64,000 nucleotides of DNA, taken from assembly GCA_965116925.1 (NCBI GenBank), contig OZ220744.1, positions 5,888,001-5,952,000 of the forward strand, in the 5' to 3' direction. Source of the DNA: Candidatus Poribacteria bacterium (lineage in GTDB: Bacteria; Poribacteria; WGA-4E; PCPOR2b). A program made the position numbers and the translations under genes. The notes under the pieces are model-generated. The model had not been told where the DNA came from. It saw only the letters and a list, made by a program, of their open reading frames with translations, and searched no databases. This document shows positions 1-25,236 of the stretch, piece after piece (position 1 is the stretch's first letter; each line of letters opens with the position of its first letter).

Positions 1-1481
1 CCCTCAGAGTGCCACTGAATCTGCGGCATATTCGTGCGCGGGGGCTGGGGCCAATGTGAGCCGCGTTGGCTGGAGAGCCCTCTGTTGGGACCGGGGACAA
101 AGTCTCGGTCAGGTAAGCCAACGAGCTGCCCATTTTCTGCCCAAGCCTCATCGCCGCCGTAGAGTTGACCAACCAGACGGTCAGTTAGATTGGTGAGGAT
201 AGCGGCATGTTCAGCGGAAGTGGAGAGATCCGTCAATTCATTCGGGTCGTTCTGCAAATCGAAAAGCTGCCGACAGTTGCCAACCGGATAATAGATGAGC
301 TTATAACGACCATCGTGAATCATGCGTGTGGCATGGTTATCCTCACCCACTTCGCCGTAGAACCAATCCCGTCTTCCCTCACCGACCATTGACCTCCCTT
401 CAACCGTCTCAGGGATATCAATACCCGCCAAGTCGAGCAATGTTGGCATCACATCCGACCAACCGACCAATCGGTCATCTACACGGTTGTAACCGACCCG
501 TTCATCCCCAGCGACGCCGAGCAGAATCATCGGGATGTTAGCGGAGTATTCGTAGAACAGTCGCTTCGCCCACATACCGTGGTTGCCGAGCATATCGCCG
601 TGATCGGATGTAAAGCAGATAATCGTATTGTCAAGCTCGCCCTCTTCACGCAAAGTCCCGAGAATGACACGCAACTGATGATCAATATGGGTGCAAAGCG
701 CATAGAAGGCACGCCGAGCGGCAATGGTCTGGTGTGGTGTCAGTTTAGCCCCTCGTGCAACATTGGCTTGCAAGCTTAAGGGCAAATCTTCTGAGGACGC
801 TGCCCAGCTGCCACTGTAGGGTTCATCAATCGGAATATCGCTGTACAGATCCAGATAGGTTTGTAGGGGAACAATTGGTGGGTGTGGGTGACGGTAGGAG
901 ATAAACCAGAAAGCAGGGCGGTTTGGATCCCGACGTTTGACAATCCGCGCCATCTGACTCGTCGCCCAATTGGTCGCATGGGTCTCTTCGGGAAGATGCC
1001 ATGGACGGTTGACATATTCGTTGTTACCCATCCCGTGATCAAAGTGGCGTCCTGCATATCCTTGATCGCCGAGAAACAGTTCGTAATCATCTAAAACCCC
1101 GTATTGGACGCGACCCTCTTCGTCCAAAATCACATCGTCGAAACCGATCCTATCGCGTTGCGGGTAGACGTGCAGTTTCCCGACCGCATAAGCCTGATAT
1201 CCTGCGTCCCGAAAGGTCTGTGCCATCGTCGGTATTTCGGGCATGGTCAGTTTATCTTTGAACACCCGATCCCCGTGGGTGCGGGGTGTAGTTCCTGTCA
1301 TAAGGGTCCGACGGGCGGGAATGCAGACCGGGCACTCCGCATAGGCGTTACTGAAACGAACCCCGCTGCGACAGAGTTCGTCGAGGGTTGGGGTTTGGAT
1401 GGCTGGATGTCCCGCAGCGCCGAACAGGGCAGCGGGCCAATGGTCAGTGCTTATTAAAAGTACATTTGGTTTAGCAGACAT
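1..1481 (-). CDS. Sulfatase (formylglycine-dependent), runs off the left edge
   Basis: Not in the ORF track because there is no stop in the window. Manual translation from ATG 1481 (RBS GGAGG): MSAKPNVLLISTDHWP...NAYAECPVCIPARRTLMTG...GYQAYAVGKLH, with the CxPxR and GKxH sulfatase motifs. Confidence 0.9.
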   Translation of the reverse strand, partial: MSAKPNVLLISTDHWPAALFGAAGHPAIQTPTLDELCRSGVRFSNAYAECPVCIPARRTLMTGTTPRTHGDRVFKDKLTMPEIPTMAQTFRDAGYQAYAVGKLHVYPQRDRIGFDDVILDEEGRVQYGVLDDYELFLGDQGYAGRHFDHGMGNNEYVNRPWHLPEETHATNWATSQMARIVKRRDPNRPAFWFISYRHPHPPIVPLQTYLDLYSDIPIDEPYSGSWAASSEDLPLSLQANVARGAKLTPHQTIAARRAFYALCTHIDHQLRVILGTLREEGELDNTIICFTSDHGDMLGNHGMWAKRLFYEYSANIPMILLGVAGDERVGYNRVDDRLVGWSDVMPTLLDLAGIDIPETVEGRSMVGEGRRDWFYGEVGEDNHATRMIHDGRYKLIYYPVGNCRQLFDLQNDPNELTDLSTSAEHAAILTNLTDRLVGQLYGGDEAWAENGQLVGLPDRDFVPGPNRGLSSQRGSHWPQPPRTNMPQIQWHSE

Positions 1482-1505
1482 AGATTATTCCTCCCTACAC
1501 ATCGT

Positions 1506-2456
1506 TCATAGGTCAATATCATCGGTCTCTAGATTCAACCAACGCATCTCATCAGGGGATAGTTGGATCGCCAACGCTTCAAGACATGAAGATAACTCTT
1601 CGTGAGTTAAGGGACCAACGAGCGGAAAGGTTGGAAACGGTTGATGCAGAACAAACGCAAGTGAAATCTGTATCGGCGTGCACCCCTTCTTCTCCCCAAC
1701 TGTTTGCGCTCGGTTGAGTCGCTCAAAATTGGCATCGTTATAGTACACCCGCACCATGTCCTGATTTTCCCGTTTTTCAGGAGCAAAACGTCCGCTGAAG
1801 AACCCTCGTGCCTGCGAGGACCACGGCAGCAGCGGAAATTGCGTTTCATTATGCCATTCCCATGCCGTTTCTGATACAGACACAACACCTTTCCACATCG
1901 GTTCCATCGGGACAGCCAAGCTGATATTGTTGCTGCTGACCGCAAATCCGTGCAATCCATGTTCTGCGGCGTATTCATTCGCTTCTTGGAGGCGTTCAAG
2001 TTCCCAATTCGACGCTCCGATCGCTCGAAGGTTGCCCGCACGAATCTCCTGATTCAGGTGCTCGATGATTGTGCTGGCGGGAATGCTTGGATCATCCCGA
2101 TGCAGCAGAAACAGGTCGATATAATCGGTCTGTAGACGGAGGAGGCTTTCATGGATGTCGTGGGCAAGTTCCTCCGGACTCAAGCGTGGACGTGGCACTG
2201 CAGCGTGTGGATGTCCGCCCTTATCAACCAAGAACACCTCGGATCGGTTTTTCCGATTTTTCATCCACATACCGAGCAGCCGTTCACTGTCGCCGCCCCC
2301 GTAACTATGCGCGGAATCAAGTGCATTCCCGCCGGCTGCAAAAAATTCGTCTAGCATTGAATAACTGTGTTCCATCGTATCGGGCGTAAATAGCATACAC
2401 CCAAGCACAAGTTGAGAAACCTCTCTGTCTATTCCTGGGATCGTTCCGTAATTCAT
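1506..2456 (-). CDS. Aldo/keto reductase
   Basis: LDSAHSYGGGDSE, LQTDYIDLFLLHRDD and IGASNW motifs; likely start MNYGTIPG after GGAG. Confidence 0.9.
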   Translation of the reverse strand: MNYGTIPGIDREVSQLVLGCMLFTPDTMEHSYSMLDEFFAAGGNALDSAHSYGGGDSERLLGMWMKNRKNRSEVFLVDKGGHPHAAVPRPRLSPEELAHDIHESLLRLQTDYIDLFLLHRDDPSIPASTIIEHLNQEIRAGNLRAIGASNWELERLQEANEYAAEHGLHGFAVSSNNISLAVPMEPMWKGVVSVSETAWEWHNETQFPLLPWSSQARGFFSGRFAPEKRENQDMVRVYYNDANFERLNRAQTVGEKKGCTPIQISLAFVLHQPFPTFPLVGPLTHEELSSCLEALAIQLSPDEMRWLNLETDDIDL

Positions 2457-2598
2457 TGGGACTCCTCTCAATAAGTATGTTGGATACATGATAACAAAAA
2501 AAGGGAAAAAGGTCTATACTCGCCACAATTTTTGCCCTGTCAACGCAAACTATGCTACAATACTGACTGGATTTTTAACCTTTTGGAGGATTTCAACA

Positions 2599-3789
2599 AT
2601 GAAGATTAATACCCTTGAAATGATTACGCTGCACATCCCTTTTTACGCCGATTATGTCACTCGACACATGCAACGCGCCTTGACCCATTCGGAGCAGGTA
2701 GAGGTGTACCGCGTTGAATTGGATAACGGCGTTATCGGTTATGGCGAAAATTTGGGGGACGAATCCGGCAACTTCGATCGGGTTATCGGACAAAACCCGT
2801 TTGCAATTATGCAGGACGACAGCATCGGTTTCGGGATTCAGATGTCCCTGTTTGATGCCGTCGGCAAATCGGTTGGCGTTCCTGTCTACCAACTGTTGGG
2901 TGCAAAGGTTCGGGACCGCTGCCCGATTTCGTGGTGGGATATCGATATGCCGCCGGAGGATTGGGTGAAAGAGGCGGAGGAATCAATTAAACGCGGTTAC
3001 ACATCAATTAAGCTGAAAGCCCGTCCGTGGCGGGACATCTTCGAGCAGGTAGAGGCGGTTGGAAAGGTTGTCCCAGAAGGTTACAAATTGGACATCGACT
3101 TCAACGGTTTTCTCCGAACAGCGGAGGGCGCACAACCCGTTTTGCAGGAGTTGGATAAACACCCCAACGTCGCATACTACGAAAGCCCTTACTATCTCGG
3201 CACAGACATCGAAGGTGCCGGGCGACTACAGGAAGTGGTGGAAAAACGGATCGTCGAACACTTTAATGAATCGTGTCTACACGCCCGCTGCTGCGGTGGA
3301 TTTGTTGTTGGGGGTGGGGCAACGGGGACACGGAGAATCAATGCGTTGTGTGCTTCGTTTGACAAACCGTTCTGGCTGCAGATGGTTGGAACGGGGATTA
3401 CGACCGCCTACGCCATGCACATCGGCGCGGTTCTATCTCATGCACAGCTGCCGGCAATCACCTGCTTTGAGTTGTGGGAACACGATCTTTTAACGCAACG
3501 GTTGGAGGTGGTAGACGGTACAATTGCTCCACCGGAAGCACCGGGGCTAGGCATTGAAGTTGATGAGTACGCGCTAGAACGCTACCGCGTTGAGCCGGGA
3601 ACACCTTCACCCACAGCCCTCTACAAGCAGAGGGAACGGACCTGTCGTGTGCATATTCCCGATGGCAAAGGGGGTGAGGTTGTCCACGATTTCACTGGTG
3701 AGGATGTCTATTATCCCGCTTTTAGTGAAGGAGAGTATCCGGGATTTGTTCGTGGTGTCTGGATGGAAGTGATTGAAGGGGCAGGATAA
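2599..3789 (+). CDS. Mandelate racemase/muconate lactonizing enzyme family (enolase superfamily)
   Basis: DAVGKSVGVPVYQLLG, KLK, DFN and APGLGIEVD motifs; RBS GGAGG before ATG 2599. Confidence 0.85.
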   Translation: MKINTLEMITLHIPFYADYVTRHMQRALTHSEQVEVYRVELDNGVIGYGENLGDESGNFDRVIGQNPFAIMQDDSIGFGIQMSLFDAVGKSVGVPVYQLLGAKVRDRCPISWWDIDMPPEDWVKEAEESIKRGYTSIKLKARPWRDIFEQVEAVGKVVPEGYKLDIDFNGFLRTAEGAQPVLQELDKHPNVAYYESPYYLGTDIEGAGRLQEVVEKRIVEHFNESCLHARCCGGFVVGGGATGTRRINALCASFDKPFWLQMVGTGITTAYAMHIGAVLSHAQLPAITCFELWEHDLLTQRLEVVDGTIAPPEAPGLGIEVDEYALERYRVEPGTPSPTALYKQRERTCRVHIPDGKGGEVVHDFTGEDVYYPAFSEGEYPGFVRGVWMEVIEGAG

Positions 3790-11649: not shown

Positions 11650-12536
11650 GAACCTGTTTGAAAAAGAAAAATCCTACTCAAAAGTTAATGTTTATGTTAA
11701 ATCATTGGTGCAGTAAAATACTGACCTAATGAAAGGCATACACATGACCTCAACGAAGTATCCTACTGATTTGACCGATGCCCAGTGGAACAACCTGTTC
11801 CCCTATTTGCCAGAACCTTCCCCCATAGGTAGACCTCTCAAATGGGAGATGCGCTCCATTATCAACGCTATTTTTTATATAGTCAAATCAGGGTGTCAGT
11901 GGCGAATGCTACCCCATCAAATGCCACCGTGGCAAACGGTCTATTCCCACTTCAGAAAGTGGCAAGCCGATGGCACATGGGTTATGATTCATCAAGCACT
12001 TCACCAGCAAACTCGTTGTGATATTGGCAAAGCACCCTCACCGACAGTAGCTATCATTGACAGCCAATCGGTCAAGACGACTGAACTGGCAGACACGAGA
12101 GGGTTTGATGCACATAAGAAAGTCAAAGGTCGTAAACGCCATATAGTCACTGATACCATTGGCATTCCATTGGGAATCAAGGTCACTGATGCCAATGTCA
12201 GTGATAATCGAGTCGCAATAGAGTTGCTAAAGGAAGTCTTTGATTGGCAGATAACGATTCAGTTAGTTTGTGCCGATGCTGGCTATCGCGGAGAATTAGG
12301 CGACTGGCTTTATTTGACGCATCAGTGTCAATTGGACATTGCCCCATCTTTTAGACAATCGGGGTTTGTGGTTGTTCCGTTGCGTTGGATTGTGGAACGC
12401 ACCTTTTCTTGGTTCGGGCGGTTTCGTCGACTGACTTTGGACTATGAACGCTCTGCTGAGACTGCTGAAGCTATGGTATACATTGCTTCTATTTACTTGA
12501 TGCAAAACCGTATCAAATGACTTTTAAAACAGGCTC
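11650..12536 (+). mobile_element. IS5-family insertion sequence (IS1031-like), 887 bp
   Basis: Terminal IRs GAACCTGTTTGAAAA and (reverse complement) GAGCCTGTTTTAAAA; 3-bp TTA duplication; intact transposase inside. Confidence 0.9.
11729..12520 (+). CDS. IS5 family transposase
   Basis: YPTDLTDAQW, GCQWRMLP, IIDSQSVKT, ADAGY and RWIVERTFSW motifs. Confidence 0.95.
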   Translation: MKGIHMTSTKYPTDLTDAQWNNLFPYLPEPSPIGRPLKWEMRSIINAIFYIVKSGCQWRMLPHQMPPWQTVYSHFRKWQADGTWVMIHQALHQQTRCDIGKAPSPTVAIIDSQSVKTTELADTRGFDAHKKVKGRKRHIVTDTIGIPLGIKVTDANVSDNRVAIELLKEVFDWQITIQLVCADAGYRGELGDWLYLTHQCQLDIAPSFRQSGFVVVPLRWIVERTFSWFGRFRRLTLDYERSAETAEAMVYIASIYLMQNRIK

Positions 12537-15603: not shown

Positions 15604-15984
15604 CTAGGGCGTGTTGACATTTTGAAGCTGCTGATTCGGCAAACACTGTAATCATCAGGCAATCTGCCAAATGTAGCGCAAACTGTTAGTTTGCAGGCTG
15701 AGATCACAATCTAACAGATCGTGGTACAAAAGGAGATTGTAGGTCGAGATTCATATCTCGACAAAATACCCAGCGTGTCGCACCACAATCTTGGCTCAAT
15801 CACCTTGGAACATTGCACGCTGTTCTTAGGTATTGTCGATTTTGGAAAATCGACCTACAGCAGCAGTCCGAAATCGTTTCTGATGTGTAAGTAGAGGGTT
15901 GGGAAACCCACCCCCTACGAAGAATCATACGTCTGTGCGCTCTCCTTGATTGTCTAATTGCGATGACATGTCAACAGAACCTAG
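15604..15984. mobile_element. ~380-bp MITE-like element with CTAG-flanked IRs, packed with REP-like hairpins
   Basis: Left CTAGGGCGTGTTGACAT, right ATGTCAACAGAACCTAG; internal GTAGGTCGAGATTCATATCTCGAC, GTCGATTTTGGAAAATCGACCTAC and GTAGAGGGTTGGGAAACCCACCCCCTAC. Confidence 0.65.
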
Positions 15985-16019
15985 ATTTATACTTTTCTCT
16001 GATTCAGAAAGGAAATTCT

Positions 16020-17186
16020 ATGAAGATTAAAGAAATTCGCGTTGTAGAAATTGAGTTGAATCCGAACCCGACAACACCGCCACGGACACCGAGTCGAGCC
16101 AGTAAATATCCAATGAATCGACCCATTTCCCGTTACCCAACGTTCGACAAGAAAGTGGGGGATGCCTCCTTAGAATGGAAAAGACCCGCATGTATTGTGA
16201 CAGCGGAAGATGGTACTTGGGGGTTCGGTATTTCACTTCATGGCGGTCCAGTGACTCGAATCATCACGGATTACTTTGCTCCACGTCTCGTTGGCGAAAA
16301 CTGTATGGCGACAGAGAAACTGTGGGATATGATGGTGCGATCATCAACCGCCTTTGGTGCAACCGGTTTGATCAGCTATGCGATCAGCGCGGTCGATTGC
16401 GCCCTGTGGGATCTCAAAGGCAAGATTTTGAAGAGACCTGTTTACGAATTGTTAGGGGGACCGCAGAAGGAGAAAATTTTCTGCTACGCCTCCGGTTTTG
16501 ATCAGGAATGGTATATGGAACTTGGATTCAAAGCGACAAAATTATTCACACCTTACGGTCCGGTGCACGGGAAGGAAGGCTTAATCAAACTCGAAGAATT
16601 GGTGGCGAGCACGCGAGAAGTGATTGGCGATAAAGTTGAATTGATGTTGGATGCGTGGACCGGCTTTGACGTTGAACATACCGTGCGTGTCTGCGAGCTC
16701 ATGAAACCCTACGACTTGAAGTGGATGGAAGACTACATTTCCCCCGAAGATTTTGTAGGCTACGAAACCTTGCGTCAACGCATTCCTTGGCAAACACTCG
16801 CTACGGGAGAACATTGGTATCTGCCAACCGTTTTTGCCGCTGCTGCGGGTCGGCGGTTGGTCGACATCTTCCAGCCAGACGTATTGTGGTGTGGTGGTAT
16901 TACTGCTGCAGCCAAAATCTGTCACATCGCTGAGGCAAACGGTATCTCTGTGATTGCACACGGTGGAATGAATTATCCCTACGGTCAACATCTGTCGTTT
17001 GCCATGCCCGCTATCACATGGGGTGAACGGTCGGAGGGTATCTCTGCGCCCGGTGTGCCGCTTGAAGAGATGGTTAAGTTGCCCGGTACTCCAGTCATCA
17101 AAGATGGCTACCTCGTACCATCGGATGCCCCCGGTTTCGGTCTTGAAATTGATGAGGCTTGGATTGAGAGTGTAAGTACAGTGTGA
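16020..17186 (+). CDS. Enolase-superfamily acid-sugar dehydratase (L-rhamnonate dehydratase-like)
   Basis: AISAVDCALWDLKGK, LMLDAW, WMEDY, TGEH, QPDVLWCGG and APGFGLEI motifs. Confidence 0.85.
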   Translation: MKIKEIRVVEIELNPNPTTPPRTPSRASKYPMNRPISRYPTFDKKVGDASLEWKRPACIVTAEDGTWGFGISLHGGPVTRIITDYFAPRLVGENCMATEKLWDMMVRSSTAFGATGLISYAISAVDCALWDLKGKILKRPVYELLGGPQKEKIFCYASGFDQEWYMELGFKATKLFTPYGPVHGKEGLIKLEELVASTREVIGDKVELMLDAWTGFDVEHTVRVCELMKPYDLKWMEDYISPEDFVGYETLRQRIPWQTLATGEHWYLPTVFAAAAGRRLVDIFQPDVLWCGGITAAAKICHIAEANGISVIAHGGMNYPYGQHLSFAMPAITWGERSEGISAPGVPLEEMVKLPGTPVIKDGYLVPSDAPGFGLEIDEAWIESVSTV

Positions 17187-17946
17187 TTTTGCGTAGGGTT
17201 ATACATCGTCGGTAAGATAGGCGAATCTGAATCGTTAGATCGTAATTTCCCCCAAGATATTGTATACTGTAATGTTCCACGCTACAAAATACGATAGAAA
17301 GGGGAAATTACGATGAGCACCATAAGCGTAAATGTTCCAGAGAAACTTTGGCGTGAGTATGAAGCGTATATATGTTTCAGTCGGTCAAGGGGTCAGTATT
17401 ATCCAACCTTTTGGTATTGGCTGAACTACATACGCTAAACACTCAACCAGTATACACTTGGCAGAAATATATTGTCAAGTGTATGCCCAATTAAACCCGA
17501 CTCGGCGAACTTGCCGCCGTATACCTCACCCTAGCTGCGTCGCTGGAAACGGCGGGGTGGCAAACAAGGGAAAATGGCGCACGGACTGGAATGAATACAG
17601 ATACTCTAAATTGCCACGTCAGGTAAGCATGGTATGGTTAAAACGAAAGTTGAACTGCCGTAAGCTTCGTCAACTCTAACGGGTAAATCTGCGAGTGAAT
17701 GCCCTGAGAGGTGCATTCAGTAATCAGCCCGTAACCAAAATGGTAAGAGGTTAGAACGCTCACTTTATTCTTGAGCGTCATGATAAGGGTTTTTGTACTT
17801 AGCCTTTATTAGCAAGTCACAATTCCTTTGGGGTAAAGACAGAACCTAACCTATGCGTATATATATAGCGTGAGAGCGAAATAGTCCCTAAGTTGTCTCA
17901 TGCATCCAGCGCACACTGTCGAACCAGTATGCGCTGGTGTACGAAC

Positions 17947-18447
17947 CTATTCATAATAGAGGTTAGCCCGCAATTCTTTAATTGCAGGTTCAACAACGTG
18001 CTCGATGCGGTAGGGATTGTGTTTCCAAAGGGAACGCAATTCCCTTTCAACGTAATCAATCACATCAAGGGTCAAGGAACACGCTAATTCCTCAGCCCTT
18101 GCATAACCGTCCTTGAGAAGACAAGTATTCATTATCATCTCAAGGGTTGGGTGCGTATCATTACGCCCCACCTTTTTCGCAGAGTGGACTGTCACGACGT
18201 TCACCTCATAGAGGTTAGCTCGCAATTCTTTAATTGCAGGCTCAACAATCTCCTTGAGACGATCATCGTTGTGTTTCCACAAAGAGCACAACTTGCTCTC
18301 AAGGTCATCAACCCAGTGAGGGGTCATCGAATAGGCTAATTCTTCATCCCGTCGATAATCGTCCTTGAGAAGATAAGCATTCATTATCATCTCAAATGTT
18401 GGGTCACGCCCTACCTTTTTCGCAGAGTGCACTGTCACGACGTTCAT
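17947..18447 (-). CDS. Hypothetical protein made of two tandem ~82-aa repeats
   Basis: RBS GGGAGGAG before ATG 18447; both units read (M/V)NVVTVHSAKKVGR...VEPAIKELRANLY; DNA repeat period about 243-252 bp. Confidence 0.7.
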   Translation of the reverse strand: MNVVTVHSAKKVGRDPTFEMIMNAYLLKDDYRRDEELAYSMTPHWVDDLESKLCSLWKHNDDRLKEIVEPAIKELRANLYEVNVVTVHSAKKVGRNDTHPTLEMIMNTCLLKDGYARAEELACSLTLDVIDYVERELRSLWKHNPYRIEHVVEPAIKELRANLYYE

Positions 18448-18645
18448 CTCCTCCCTTGTTGGATTAGGCGTGGTTGAACACGCCTTTTCCGCATAGGACG
18501 ATGAATCGATGTTTAGGTTTATGAGATGATAAGGGAGAGGAGGCAAGGTAGGATAGCAATACCTGAGCATTGCCAGAGTTAGGAAACTGAAAGCCTAACA
18601 AAAAACTTTACCAACATTGATGAAAAGCGGGGCTTGCCCTGTCAA

Positions 18646-18924
18646 ACGACTGGATTCGGCGTGTTTTCATCTCAACGTATCACCGAGTTTGAAAATCACG
18701 TCCGAAGTATTCAGATGAAACTGGACAAAGCGGTTCCAAATGATGATAAAAACCTTGGTTCATATTAAGAAAGCGTGCAACAGCAATCGTAGGGGCGGGG
18801 TTTCCTCGCCCGCGCTTCACATTTTGCACTTTCTTTTTATATGAGCCAAAACCTTATCCGATGGTATGTGCATCTTTTGAGTAAGAAATCGAGAACCGTT
18901 AAAATCCTCGCAATTCACAACTAG
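18646..18924 (+). pseudogene. Remnant of the group II intron reverse transcriptase N-terminus
   Basis: After removing the MITE and one TSD copy it reads ...ENHVRSIQMKLDKAVPNDDKNLIRWYVHLLSKKSRTVKILAIH*, resembling the RVT_N region of intron RTs; the rest is absent. Confidence 0.65.
18757..18847. mobile_element. MITE family A copy with 8-bp TSD
   Basis: GGTTCATAT...ATATGAGCC flanked by AAAACCTT (18749-18756 and 18848-18855); interior is a GTAGGGGCGGGGTTTCCTCGCCC hairpin. Confidence 0.88.
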
Positions 18925-19019
18925 CATTCCCGGAAAGAGATGGCAAACCTTATCGACAAAGATATTGACTATCTACGGTTGGTAAAGGTTTGATGAAGTC
19001 CGTCAAGTGAGATTAAGAC

Positions 19020-19382
19020 TCAATACCCGACTGTTTGCCAATAATAGATGATGCCATCAGGACGAACAAAAAACAATCTACGCTTTTCCACAGTGTATGT
19101 ACGCCCATGTTTATAAGTGGCGACAGGTATCAGTGGATGGTAGGATACAGACGAAGGAAATTGACCCACGACGCTGTTGTCCCAAATATAGATTGTCCCA
19201 CCCTTACCATCAGGGACGGACGATTGATAGACTCCCCATGATCTGATAACTTCAGAGATATGAGAACCTAACCAAGAATCCATAATCTCCCGATTGGAAG
19301 GGGGTAGAAGTTCACCTAATTTGGCACACCCAAGCATCAGGAAACAAAGGAACACAACGACAAATCTCATATTTCTCATCAC
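19020..19382 (-). CDS. Small lipoprotein
   Basis: Lipobox LMLGC; SWLGSHISEVIRSWG and FFVRPDGII segments typical of small alpha/beta lipoproteins. Confidence 0.75.
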   Translation of the reverse strand: MMRNMRFVVVFLCFLMLGCAKLGELLPPSNREIMDSWLGSHISEVIRSWGVYQSSVPDGKGGTIYIWDNSVVGQFPSSVSYHPLIPVATYKHGRTYTVEKRRLFFVRPDGIIYYWQTVGY

Positions 19383-19461
19383 CTATTTTACTATTTTACG
19401 AATTATTTTATCGACGATAGAAAATTAGGAAGGTTTAACACATCATCATTTTTGATTCGGA

Positions 19462-19536
19462 AAGCCGTGTGCGGTGAAAGTCGCACGCACGGTTTGGAAG
19501 CGGGGAAAAGTCCGTGAGGACTCTACCTATGCTCAC
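19462..19536 (+). ncRNA. Group II intron catalytic domains V and VI
   Basis: AAGCCGTGTGCGGTGAAAGTCGCACGCACGGTTT (AGC triad, GAAA loop, 2-nt bulge), followed by GGAAGCGGGGAAAAG...CTACCTATGCTCAC ending in AY. Confidence 0.92.
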
Positions 19537-19588
19537 TAGAATATACAAGAAGGGTAGACATCGCTCGGCTATGAAGATGACTTTATCG

Positions 19589-24619: not shown

Positions 24620-25236
24620 ATGCAAGTTGCTAGTTGAATATCCATGGGATTTCCGTTAGAGTATTTGCGTTCTAAACAACACTCTTAAAACAGGAGAATT
24701 CCATGGACTTAGTAATCGTAGCATTTTATGCGCTTTGTGACGATCTCTTAATTCAACACCGATACCAAGGTGAAGCGTGGCGAGGACATATAGCTAGTAA
24801 CCGCAGATATTTCTATGGACTTAAACTGCATCTGATGGTCACTGAAGATGGCGTGCCGGTTGAGTTCTTCTTAACACCGAGCAGTTTTGGTGATGTTTTA
24901 GGGTTGCGGTGTTATCCGTTTGACTTACCTCAAGGGGCGGCCGTTTATGCAGATAGAGCCTACTGCAATTATGGGATTGAAGATGCGTTAGCTGAAGCCG
25001 GTATTACGCTCAAGCCGTTGCGAAAAAAGAACAGCAAACGCCAATATGACACGTGTAAGGTTTATCTCCACCATCACCGCAGGAAGCCTGTAGAGGAACA
25101 AATAGTCTCATCACCCAACGCCTACCCCGGTCAATTCACGCGGTCACTGCCGCTGGGTTTGAGATGAAAGTCGTTTTGTTTCTCATCGTTACTATGATTA
25201 CACGCATCATTACATAAAAACACTAGCAACTTGCGT
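24620..25236 (+). mobile_element. IS982-family element, internally deleted
   Basis: IRs ATGCAAGTTGCTAGT and ACTAGCAACTTGCGT; transposase remnant inside. Confidence 0.8.
24703..25167 (+). pseudogene. IS982 transposase pseudogene
   Basis: RYFYGLKLHL, YADRAY and PLRKKNSKR motifs; N-terminus fused to the catalytic part by a deletion; frameshift near 25095. Confidence 0.85.

Follow-up and report, generated by a model that had tools for sequence, protein, structure and literature searches.

How does a group II intron that has lost its reverse transcriptase (RT) come to hold three small genes, and is this an accident of one copy or a habit of its lineage? Group II introns found naturally in bacteria are regarded as selfish, with no gene besides the RT, and cargo is known mainly from engineered targetrons. 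The question is raised by a stretch of 64,000 nucleotides (nt) from a Candidatus Poribacteria bacterium (GenBank assembly GCA_965116925.1, contig OZ220744.1, positions 5,888,001 to 5,952,000), here called the window, in whose numbering all positions are given. The contig is a 6.47-Mb genome, 99% complete in one piece, and DNA runs of sponge metagenomes contain the stretch. An earlier note, made from the letters alone, had placed at 17535-19536 a group II intron with two antisense passenger genes and proposed a gene-cargo vehicle. Our analysis points, with good probability, to a full-length group IIB (chloroplast-like, CL-like) intron from a lineage of Poribacteria that accommodates passenger genes in its peripheral loops, carrying and exchanging them. 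The window copy holds three mutually unrelated small genes in such loops, its ribozyme helices are kept and its RT is internally deleted.

A complete intron immediately ahead of a stop codon

The ends of the intron are set by empty alleles. Since position 17180 is joined directly to the 3' exon (19537) in nine of 11 orthologous congeneric loci, the intron spans 17181-19536 and starts with GTGTG; of the other two loci, one has a different short insert and in one the upstream gene is not adjacent. The flanks are an enolase-superfamily gene on one side and a convergent oxidoreductase gene on the other. In empty alleles the former ends at a TAG, now found at 19537-19539, and with the intron present it gains one codon and stops at TGA 17184-17186; the intron is inserted immediately ahead of the host stop codon and provides a replacement one codon on. 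The features on which this rests, with the exon pairings, are as follows.

15963-17180, + strand: 5' exon, enolase-superfamily (mandelate racemase-like) gene (family searches, empty alleles)
17181-19536, + strand: whole group IIB intron, 2356 nt, GUGYG start, AC end (empty alleles, family alignment)
17168-17173, + strand: intron-binding site 2 (IBS2), complementary to exon-binding site 2 (EBS2)
17174-17180, + strand: IBS1, complementary to EBS1
17756-17761, + strand: EBS2, pairs with 17168-17173, two pairs being G-U
17794-17801, + strand: EBS1, eight of eight Watson-Crick pairs with the end of the 5' exon
17836, + strand: EBS3 (A), pairs with T19537

The GUGYG 5' end and AY 3' end at the true exon junctions are those of group IIB, and so are the predicted EBS1, EBS2 and EBS3 pairings with the exons. 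Across the family, EBS1 makes at least six pairs with its own exons in 30 of 55 elements (47 of 2482 trials with foreign exons), and EBS3 is Watson-Crick in 45 of 53. The earlier note was therefore right about the intron and wrong about its 5' end, which lies 354 nt further upstream: the CTGCG that it took for the start is a strand of the GAAA-capped Ic stem (17535-17545/17550-17560). Its caveat that this copy may be inactive falls with it, because the 5' end is the canonical GTGTG at 17181. A IIC-type insertion behind the hairpin at 17449-17487 was considered and is ruled out, this hairpin lying inside the intron.

The domains of the ribozyme follow one another in the expected order.

17186-17882, + strand: domain I (DI), closed by 17186-17192/17876-17882, consensus helices kept (28-sequence consensus fold)
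17885-18536, + strand: domain II (DII), stem 17885-17899/18523-18536, 623-nt apical-loop insert 17900-18522 (consensus fold)
18542-18574, + strand: domain III (DIII), without insert in this copy (read from the sequence)
19462-19495, + strand: domain V (DV), AGC triad, GAAA loop (Rfam, family covariation)
19500-19536, + strand: domain VI (DVI), bulged A at 19529, 3' end AC (Rfam, family covariation)

Consensus folding of 28 members gives 22 helices in DI and DII, and in the window copy 15 of these are fully paired, four are short by one or two pairs, at most one in five, and three are weak. DI had been thought to be closed by TCGCT (17540) and AGCGA, but CTGCG/TCGCT at 17535-17544 belongs to Ic; Rfam gives a weak DI match that begins at 17501, already upstream of the start once proposed. 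The other domains stand much as first described, including the DII stem around the 17947-18447 open reading frame (ORF), DIII (then put at 18542-18573) and the domain IV (DIV) basal stem 18576-18584/19450-19458, which has nine pairs, four of them G-U, and encloses an RT remnant, a miniature inverted-repeat transposable element (MITE) and a lipoprotein ORF. DV and DVI are matched by Rfam RF00029 at 19460-19536 with 64.4 bits, and among 15 family members all 360 cells of these two domains are paired, with changes on both sides in nine of 24 pairs. The predicted DI-DIII structure, the AGC triad and the bulged A are all consistent with group IIB.

Three passenger genes in three loops

Both antisense ORFs of the earlier note are open, and a third gene, in sense orientation in the apical loop of the first hairpin (Ia), had been missed.

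17213-17496, + strand: Ia apical-loop insert, 284 nt, on stem 17208-17212/17497-17501, with three long hairpins
17313-17438, + strand (sense): passenger 1, 41-aa ORF (homologues, pN/pS, ribosome-binding site (RBS))
17449-17478, - strand: sigma-70-like promoter in an inverted repeat, 11 of 12 consensus bases, convergent on passenger 1
17947-18447, - strand: passenger 2, 166-aa ORF with RBS, predicted helical, no family
18601-18993, + strand: RT/maturase remnant, N-terminal ~73 codons fused to the last ~26, interrupted by the MITE
18757-18847, no strand assigned: MITE, 91 bp, imperfect terminal inverted repeats (TIRs), REP-like (repetitive extragenic palindrome-like) core, duplication 18749-18756/18848-18855
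19020-19370, - strand: passenger 3, 116-aa lipoprotein, longer starts at 19379/19382, family common in Poribacteria

All three passengers are conserved at the protein level. None has a significant family in Pfam, NCBIfam or PHROGs (best PHROG E 0.004). Passenger 1 has a pN/pS of 0.36-0.39, and 28 of the 52 differences from its homologue in family element L098 are at third positions. Its homologues sit in DIII of L038 and L098 and all three strong matches in the phylum lie within these introns, a fourth match being weak; five further homologues come from protein databases. The Ia insert itself is strongly structured (z -7.4), the corresponding loop has 7 nt in relatives, and a related contig without the insert joins 17212 to 17497. 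The RBS and start of passenger 1 are inside a 14-bp stem (17239-17252/17301-17314), and the homologues in L038 and L098 have a similar promoter arrangement beside them. Type I toxin-antitoxin systems are recognised by a small ORF, a sequestered RBS, a convergent antisense promoter and a hydrophobic membrane peptide. The predicted layout of the Ia insert fits the sequestered RBS and the convergent promoter; passenger 1 is not a hydrophobic membrane peptide, its highest 17-residue hydropathy being -0.22. That the module is a small gene under antisense RNA control, possibly of the addiction type, is a tentative idea, and we think it rather unlikely.

Passenger 2 consists of two tandem units of ~82 aa each, which are 77% alike in DNA, differ by 9 nt with the frame preserved and have a unit-to-unit dN/dS of 0.35. 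A one-unit homologue, 82% identical, exists, and none was found in the other 175 genomes of the phylum. The structure model is unreliable (very low mean pLDDT, the predicted local distance difference score), and matches in the Atlas are weak. Passenger 3 is the lipoprotein first delimited as 19020-19382, for which we set the start at 19370. Its family is found in 82 of 176 phylum genomes; in the Atlas it falls with strong scores among unnamed lipoprotein clusters, and BamE, at a somewhat lower score, is a lead only. The model, which is of good confidence, has no match in PDB at E 0.001.

Against an intact relative, the RT remnant aligns with residues 2-73 and 552-577; it has lost its start codon and has an internal stop, so the loss of the RT was correctly seen, and DIV of this copy contains no intact RT-maturase-endonuclease. 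The MITE, also seen before, is flanked by an exact 8-bp target duplication, and this TIR pair together with an exact 8-bp duplication marks 25 elements in the genome; no autonomous partner was found among elements of up to 2.5 kb. By its TIRs, target duplication, many copies and lack of a transposase this is a MITE family, whose members have variable REP-like fillings between their ends. Elsewhere in the window there are an IS5-type transposase gene (11729-12520) and a truncated DDE transposase gene (24703-25167).

A family of introns with varied cargo

The empty alleles, RT-encoding parents and copies with other cargo for which the earlier note had called all exist. A DV/DVI model matched 25 of 29 genomes of the family, giving 195 matches; about 110 stronger ones were taken, and 82 elements with both DI and DV were delimited. 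Because many relatives hold different genes in like loops, the intron family seems to be a natural gene carrier. Among the 62 complete elements of family f1, eight have passenger ORFs, six an RT only and five ordinary insertion sequence (IS) elements; further cargo-bearing members are L027, L141 and L154, whose 3' or 5' ends were not called by the script. The passengers vary between members, are located in Ia, DII, DIII, DIV and DVI, and belong to families that recur at unrelated loci; nine of 21 scored passenger ORFs have a membrane or signal segment. L030 has an intact 582-aa RT-X-HNH protein (TIGR04416 above cut-off) together with inserts in DIII, DIV and DVI; the best solved relative is PDB 6ME0_C (E 7e-88), the Thermosynechococcus enzyme. 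DIII ORFs are present in L027, L029, L030, L038 and L098, those of the first three being of a common family in unrelated 600-nt flanks. A non-coding module with promoter-like ends occurs in DIV of L027 and in DVI of L030. The best evidence for movement of RT-less cargo introns and exchange within the DIV slot comes from L038 and L098 of one genome. Neither element has an RT match, their first 600 columns are 97-100% identical and their flanks are unrelated; their DIII ORFs are homologous and their DIV ORFs differ.

Such enlargement was not seen in distant introns. In Poribacteria, 12 of 27 elements with an RT C-terminus have 386-988 nt extra between the RT stop and DV, whereas none of 62 distant metagenome introns do, the one apparent case being a frameshifted HNH domain (four of 80 controls had open ORFs and were left out of the search). 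Pattern scans of metagenome and viral contigs for the signature of the cargo slots gave no matches, and a single-protein scan of the genome collection gave one locus only. In a tree of the core, cargo-bearing and cargo-free forms are interleaved, and the window copy is nearest to L028, which is compact and cargo-free, followed by L027 and L029.

Several members are curious in their own right. L028 is nested in DI of another family member, twintron-like. L154 (genome G004, C1, ~5604900-5610100, minus strand) exceeds 5 kb and has two antisense lipoprotein ORFs, a sense ORF and then a frameshifted RT; more ORFs open from its DVI loop, and it has cargo families in common with L141 of the same genome. 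In L153 and L155, signal-peptide ORFs open at DVI. Group II introns would be unusual in bacterial transfer RNA (tRNA) genes, and six RT-encoding introns of family f2 (L057, L058, L059, L063, L064, L068) interrupt a tRNA gene, by eye one for tRNA-Arg(CCT), in its D-arm region. tRNA-Gly genes are found within DIV itself (L069:3146-3219 and L073:3291-3362), between the RT stop and a common ORF of 135-143 aa of secreted type. The 5' ends of L069, L071, L073 and L076 are ~8-10 nt past a consensus sigma-70 -10 box, near the transcription start. Near-same, repeat-like 5' exons at many loci characterise one compact subfamily (L036, L091-L093, L103, L106-L108, L116) and likewise a second (L018-L020, L035, L046), which suggests EBS sequences tuned to host repeats.

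A candidate antisense promoter at the cargo slots

Both antisense passengers of the window copy have the same motif upstream.

18497-18522, - strand: AAAC-N16-CGTC motif, edge of the DII insert, upstream of passenger 2
19413-19438, - strand: AAAC-N16-CGTC motif, 3' edge of DIV, upstream of passenger 3

Antisense AAAC-N15-17-CGT(A/C) occurs at most 70 nt from DV in seven of 82 elements, against a chance of 0.43% per window. Every one of the seven has antisense DIV cargo, and the remaining 75 elements lack the motif there. Because the motif was defined on cargo-bearing elements, independent support comes from the copy at the DII edge, from its presence in the 3' fragment L045 and from its absence upstream of free lipoprotein homologues (19 of 19). 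It stands 11-45 nt ahead of the cargo RBS and matches the pattern of promoters read by extracytoplasmic function (ECF) sigma factors, described as AAC in the -35 and CGT in the -10 element (PMC8103513); the host genome has 40 sigma70_r4_2 matches above cut-off. The motif could well be an antisense promoter supplied by the intron, probably read by an ECF sigma factor and expressing whichever ORF lies behind it, and we are evenly divided on this. Expression of the cargo independently of splicing, as the earlier note proposed, is suggested by promoter-like motifs only. With antisense placement, terminators of the cargo would stay off the intron RNA; this layout is no rule of the family, for passenger 1 is in sense orientation, as are ORFs commonly carried by f2 relatives; the antisense claim thus stands for passengers 2 and 3. 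An origin of the motif in a host regulon, from which the cargo would have brought it, is unsupported, there being no clear genomic excess at a spacing of 15-17 nt. For the motif-bearing type the core tree takes three changes, of which the starred branches force one, and fits one origin or several. The DIV motif also resembles, in inverted orientation over 12 nt, the RT 3' end of L017, a likeness that may be due to chance.

Two different inserts of the window copy have the motif at their extreme edge, the small-ORF module sits in Ia here and in DIII elsewhere, and the non-coding module changes domain between L027 and L030. The passengers might accordingly be separate small mobile cassettes that target intron loops and are moved incidentally, with the motif as their end or recombination site. 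We consider this quite improbable, since by eye the other insert edge has neither a matching motif nor a target duplication, the elements encode no recombinase, the distance of the motif to the RBS is promoter spacing and free lipoprotein homologues lack it.

Vehicle or wreck?

As for movement, the family and the window copy have to be judged separately. At the family level the gene-cargo vehicle proposed at the outset finds RT parents, compact ORF-less copies and varied cargo; for this copy, single in a genome without an RT match, it is no more than a proposal. Near-identical copies at several loci, expected of ORF-less introns mobilised in trans, are found for relatives only. Because the copy is single, its genome without an RT match and its RT deletion different from that of L027, it may have arrived RT-intact and lost the RT in place, which is quite likely; movement after RT loss is somewhat doubtful. 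Other decayed introns exist in the same genome (G000, C1), where truncated remnants lie at 1003600-1004400 (minus), 364200-364640 (minus), 3282280 and 753100, the first of which keeps DII-DVI and an antisense ORF for 113 aa with a membrane plus coiled-coil segment, related to the cargo of L037. In genome G005, L041, L081 and L082 are identical ORF-less copies of 742 nt at different loci, and a search for an RT found a short fragment only.

These facts invite the view that a lone intron arrived RT-intact, lost its RT and then accrued neutral inserts like any intergenic DNA, a view that gains from the single copy, the absence of a helper, the MITE in the dead RT gene, the five relatives enlarged by plain IS elements and the neighbouring remnants. 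It is nonetheless improbable as an account of the cargo: stems are intact around all three gene inserts, the inserts have RBSs and protein-level conservation, homologous cargo is present in RT-intact and RT-less relatives at unrelated loci, and distant introns have nothing alike.

In one metatranscriptome the ribozyme parts of relatives reach a depth of 600-3300, as against 3-70 for flanking genes. Its assembled contigs do not contain the splice joint 17180>19537; a joint 19537>17626 (depth 612), circle-like from the 3' end to DI, does not demonstrate splicing of the window copy, and neither does the high depth, because both derive from relatives and from contigs. Another study's contigs contain a same-site intron with Ia cargo (22 differences in 449 nt, 17140-17588, ~95%), a lipoprotein region that is ~99% identical and relatives without Ia or DIV cargo. 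Persistence of same-site copies is what one would expect of an intron that has been domesticated at the host gene's 3' end, as a fixed platform for conditionally expressed genes or as a regulatory RNA, and that has ceased to be important for mobility. We regard this as very improbable, given that this intron is missing from the site in all ten congeneric loci with preserved gene order and that expression evidence is nil.

Against the carrier reading as a whole stand several results. Most members are passenger-free, 43 of the 62 complete f1 elements having at most 870 nt; the genomes compared are kin and not independent samples, and 14 of 76 control loci were dropped for want of a usable DV. 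The window element has no second copy in its genome, where no RT match, hence no helper, was found; three of its helices are weak in the consensus alignment (2/6, 2/4 and 5/9 pairs), and in the metatranscriptome its cargo regions have a depth of 0-5, with none for the lipoprotein. Most relatives of the lipoprotein have no link to an intron: of 19 loci one has a DV match, and there the gene lies outside. The cargo-bearing elements themselves served to define the motif, and L037, L051 and L141 have cargo and no motif at DV; since the motif is not enriched genome-wide (33 vs 22-35 at other spacings), it may instead be a recombination or binding site.

We still favour a lineage that carries and exchanges genes. 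The intron would have entered by reverse splicing and reverse transcription; the inserts would have been gained while the ribozyme was under selection, because they persist only where stems stay intact; and copies may have swapped cargo at their conserved flanks, through recombination or through template switching by the RT, a step on which we would not lean either way. The window copy would now be stranded without an RT. A bolder version is possible, and we doubt it: an integron-like retroelement whose built-in expression slot, served by a stress sigma factor, would capture ORFs without promoters (membrane or secreted proteins in many cases, a tRNA in some), swap them from copy to copy and spread them through RNA, with RT-less vehicles moved in trans and antisense-controlled modules aiding persistence.

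Comparison with known systems

The family shares with bacterial IIB/CL introns the six-domain ribozyme, GUGYG...AC ends, EBS1/2/3 and, in intact relatives, RT-X-HNH. It differs by having protein genes in the loops of DI, DII, DIII, DIV and DVI, and in open-licence papers we found neither natural group II introns with passenger genes nor this lineage described. With genes of >1 kb in total in several loops and some members RT-intact, it would amount to RNA-based gene spread in sponge symbionts, and the lineage would be a testable system for the capture of promoterless ORFs.

The nearest parallel for the insertion site is the start/stop-codon IIB1 clade (Avi.groEL, EcKTE56.groEL), described as inserting at start or stop codons and providing a replacement stop (PMC12584367, citing Michel et al. 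2007). The window intron, at a stop codon, with its replacement stop and a large variable insert near the 5' end, resembles it, and an RBS plus ATG at the junction marks 12 of 55 family sites (1.0% of random positions). In all members of the Avi.groEL clade, however, the 300-700 nt insert is in the basal internal loop of DI, and the excerpted text mentions no passenger genes for that clade (PMC12584367). Here it is the first hairpin that has the insert, in its apical loop, and most members are without it; from the 5' end to Ic the distance in nearly all relatives is ~60 nt.

Bacterial introns that lack an ORF and are served in trans are reported to be rare and nearly always beside their helper (PMC4424553). 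Compact copies identical at several loci (742/742 in G005 and G004) are likewise found here, but such copies are common in one family, some have passengers and no helper was found in the window genome. Surveys of ORF-less introns that limit the DI-to-DV distance to 1300 nt (PMC8919778) would miss the window intron (~1940 nt from Ic to DV). Group II introns are stated to have no promoter of their own (PMC12584367). IIC-attC introns, which have an outward promoter, Pout, that drives a neighbouring cassette outside the intron (PMC3001079), resemble the window intron in an intron-internal promoter (putative here) for a gene not needed in mobility; they differ in that the putative promoter here faces a gene within the intron.

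Size limits are a practical problem in cargo targetrons. These, and introns with retrotransposition-activated marker (RAM) genes, have a gene in DIV, antisense and with its own promoter, DIVb being the best cargo site, and inserts of >1 kb sharply reduce their mobility (PMC3898094). An antisense DIV gene with a (putative) promoter is also what the window intron has, with the differences that it is natural, uses several domains at once and holds 1.3 kb of extras, so that its lineage would be a natural guide to cargo placement sites.

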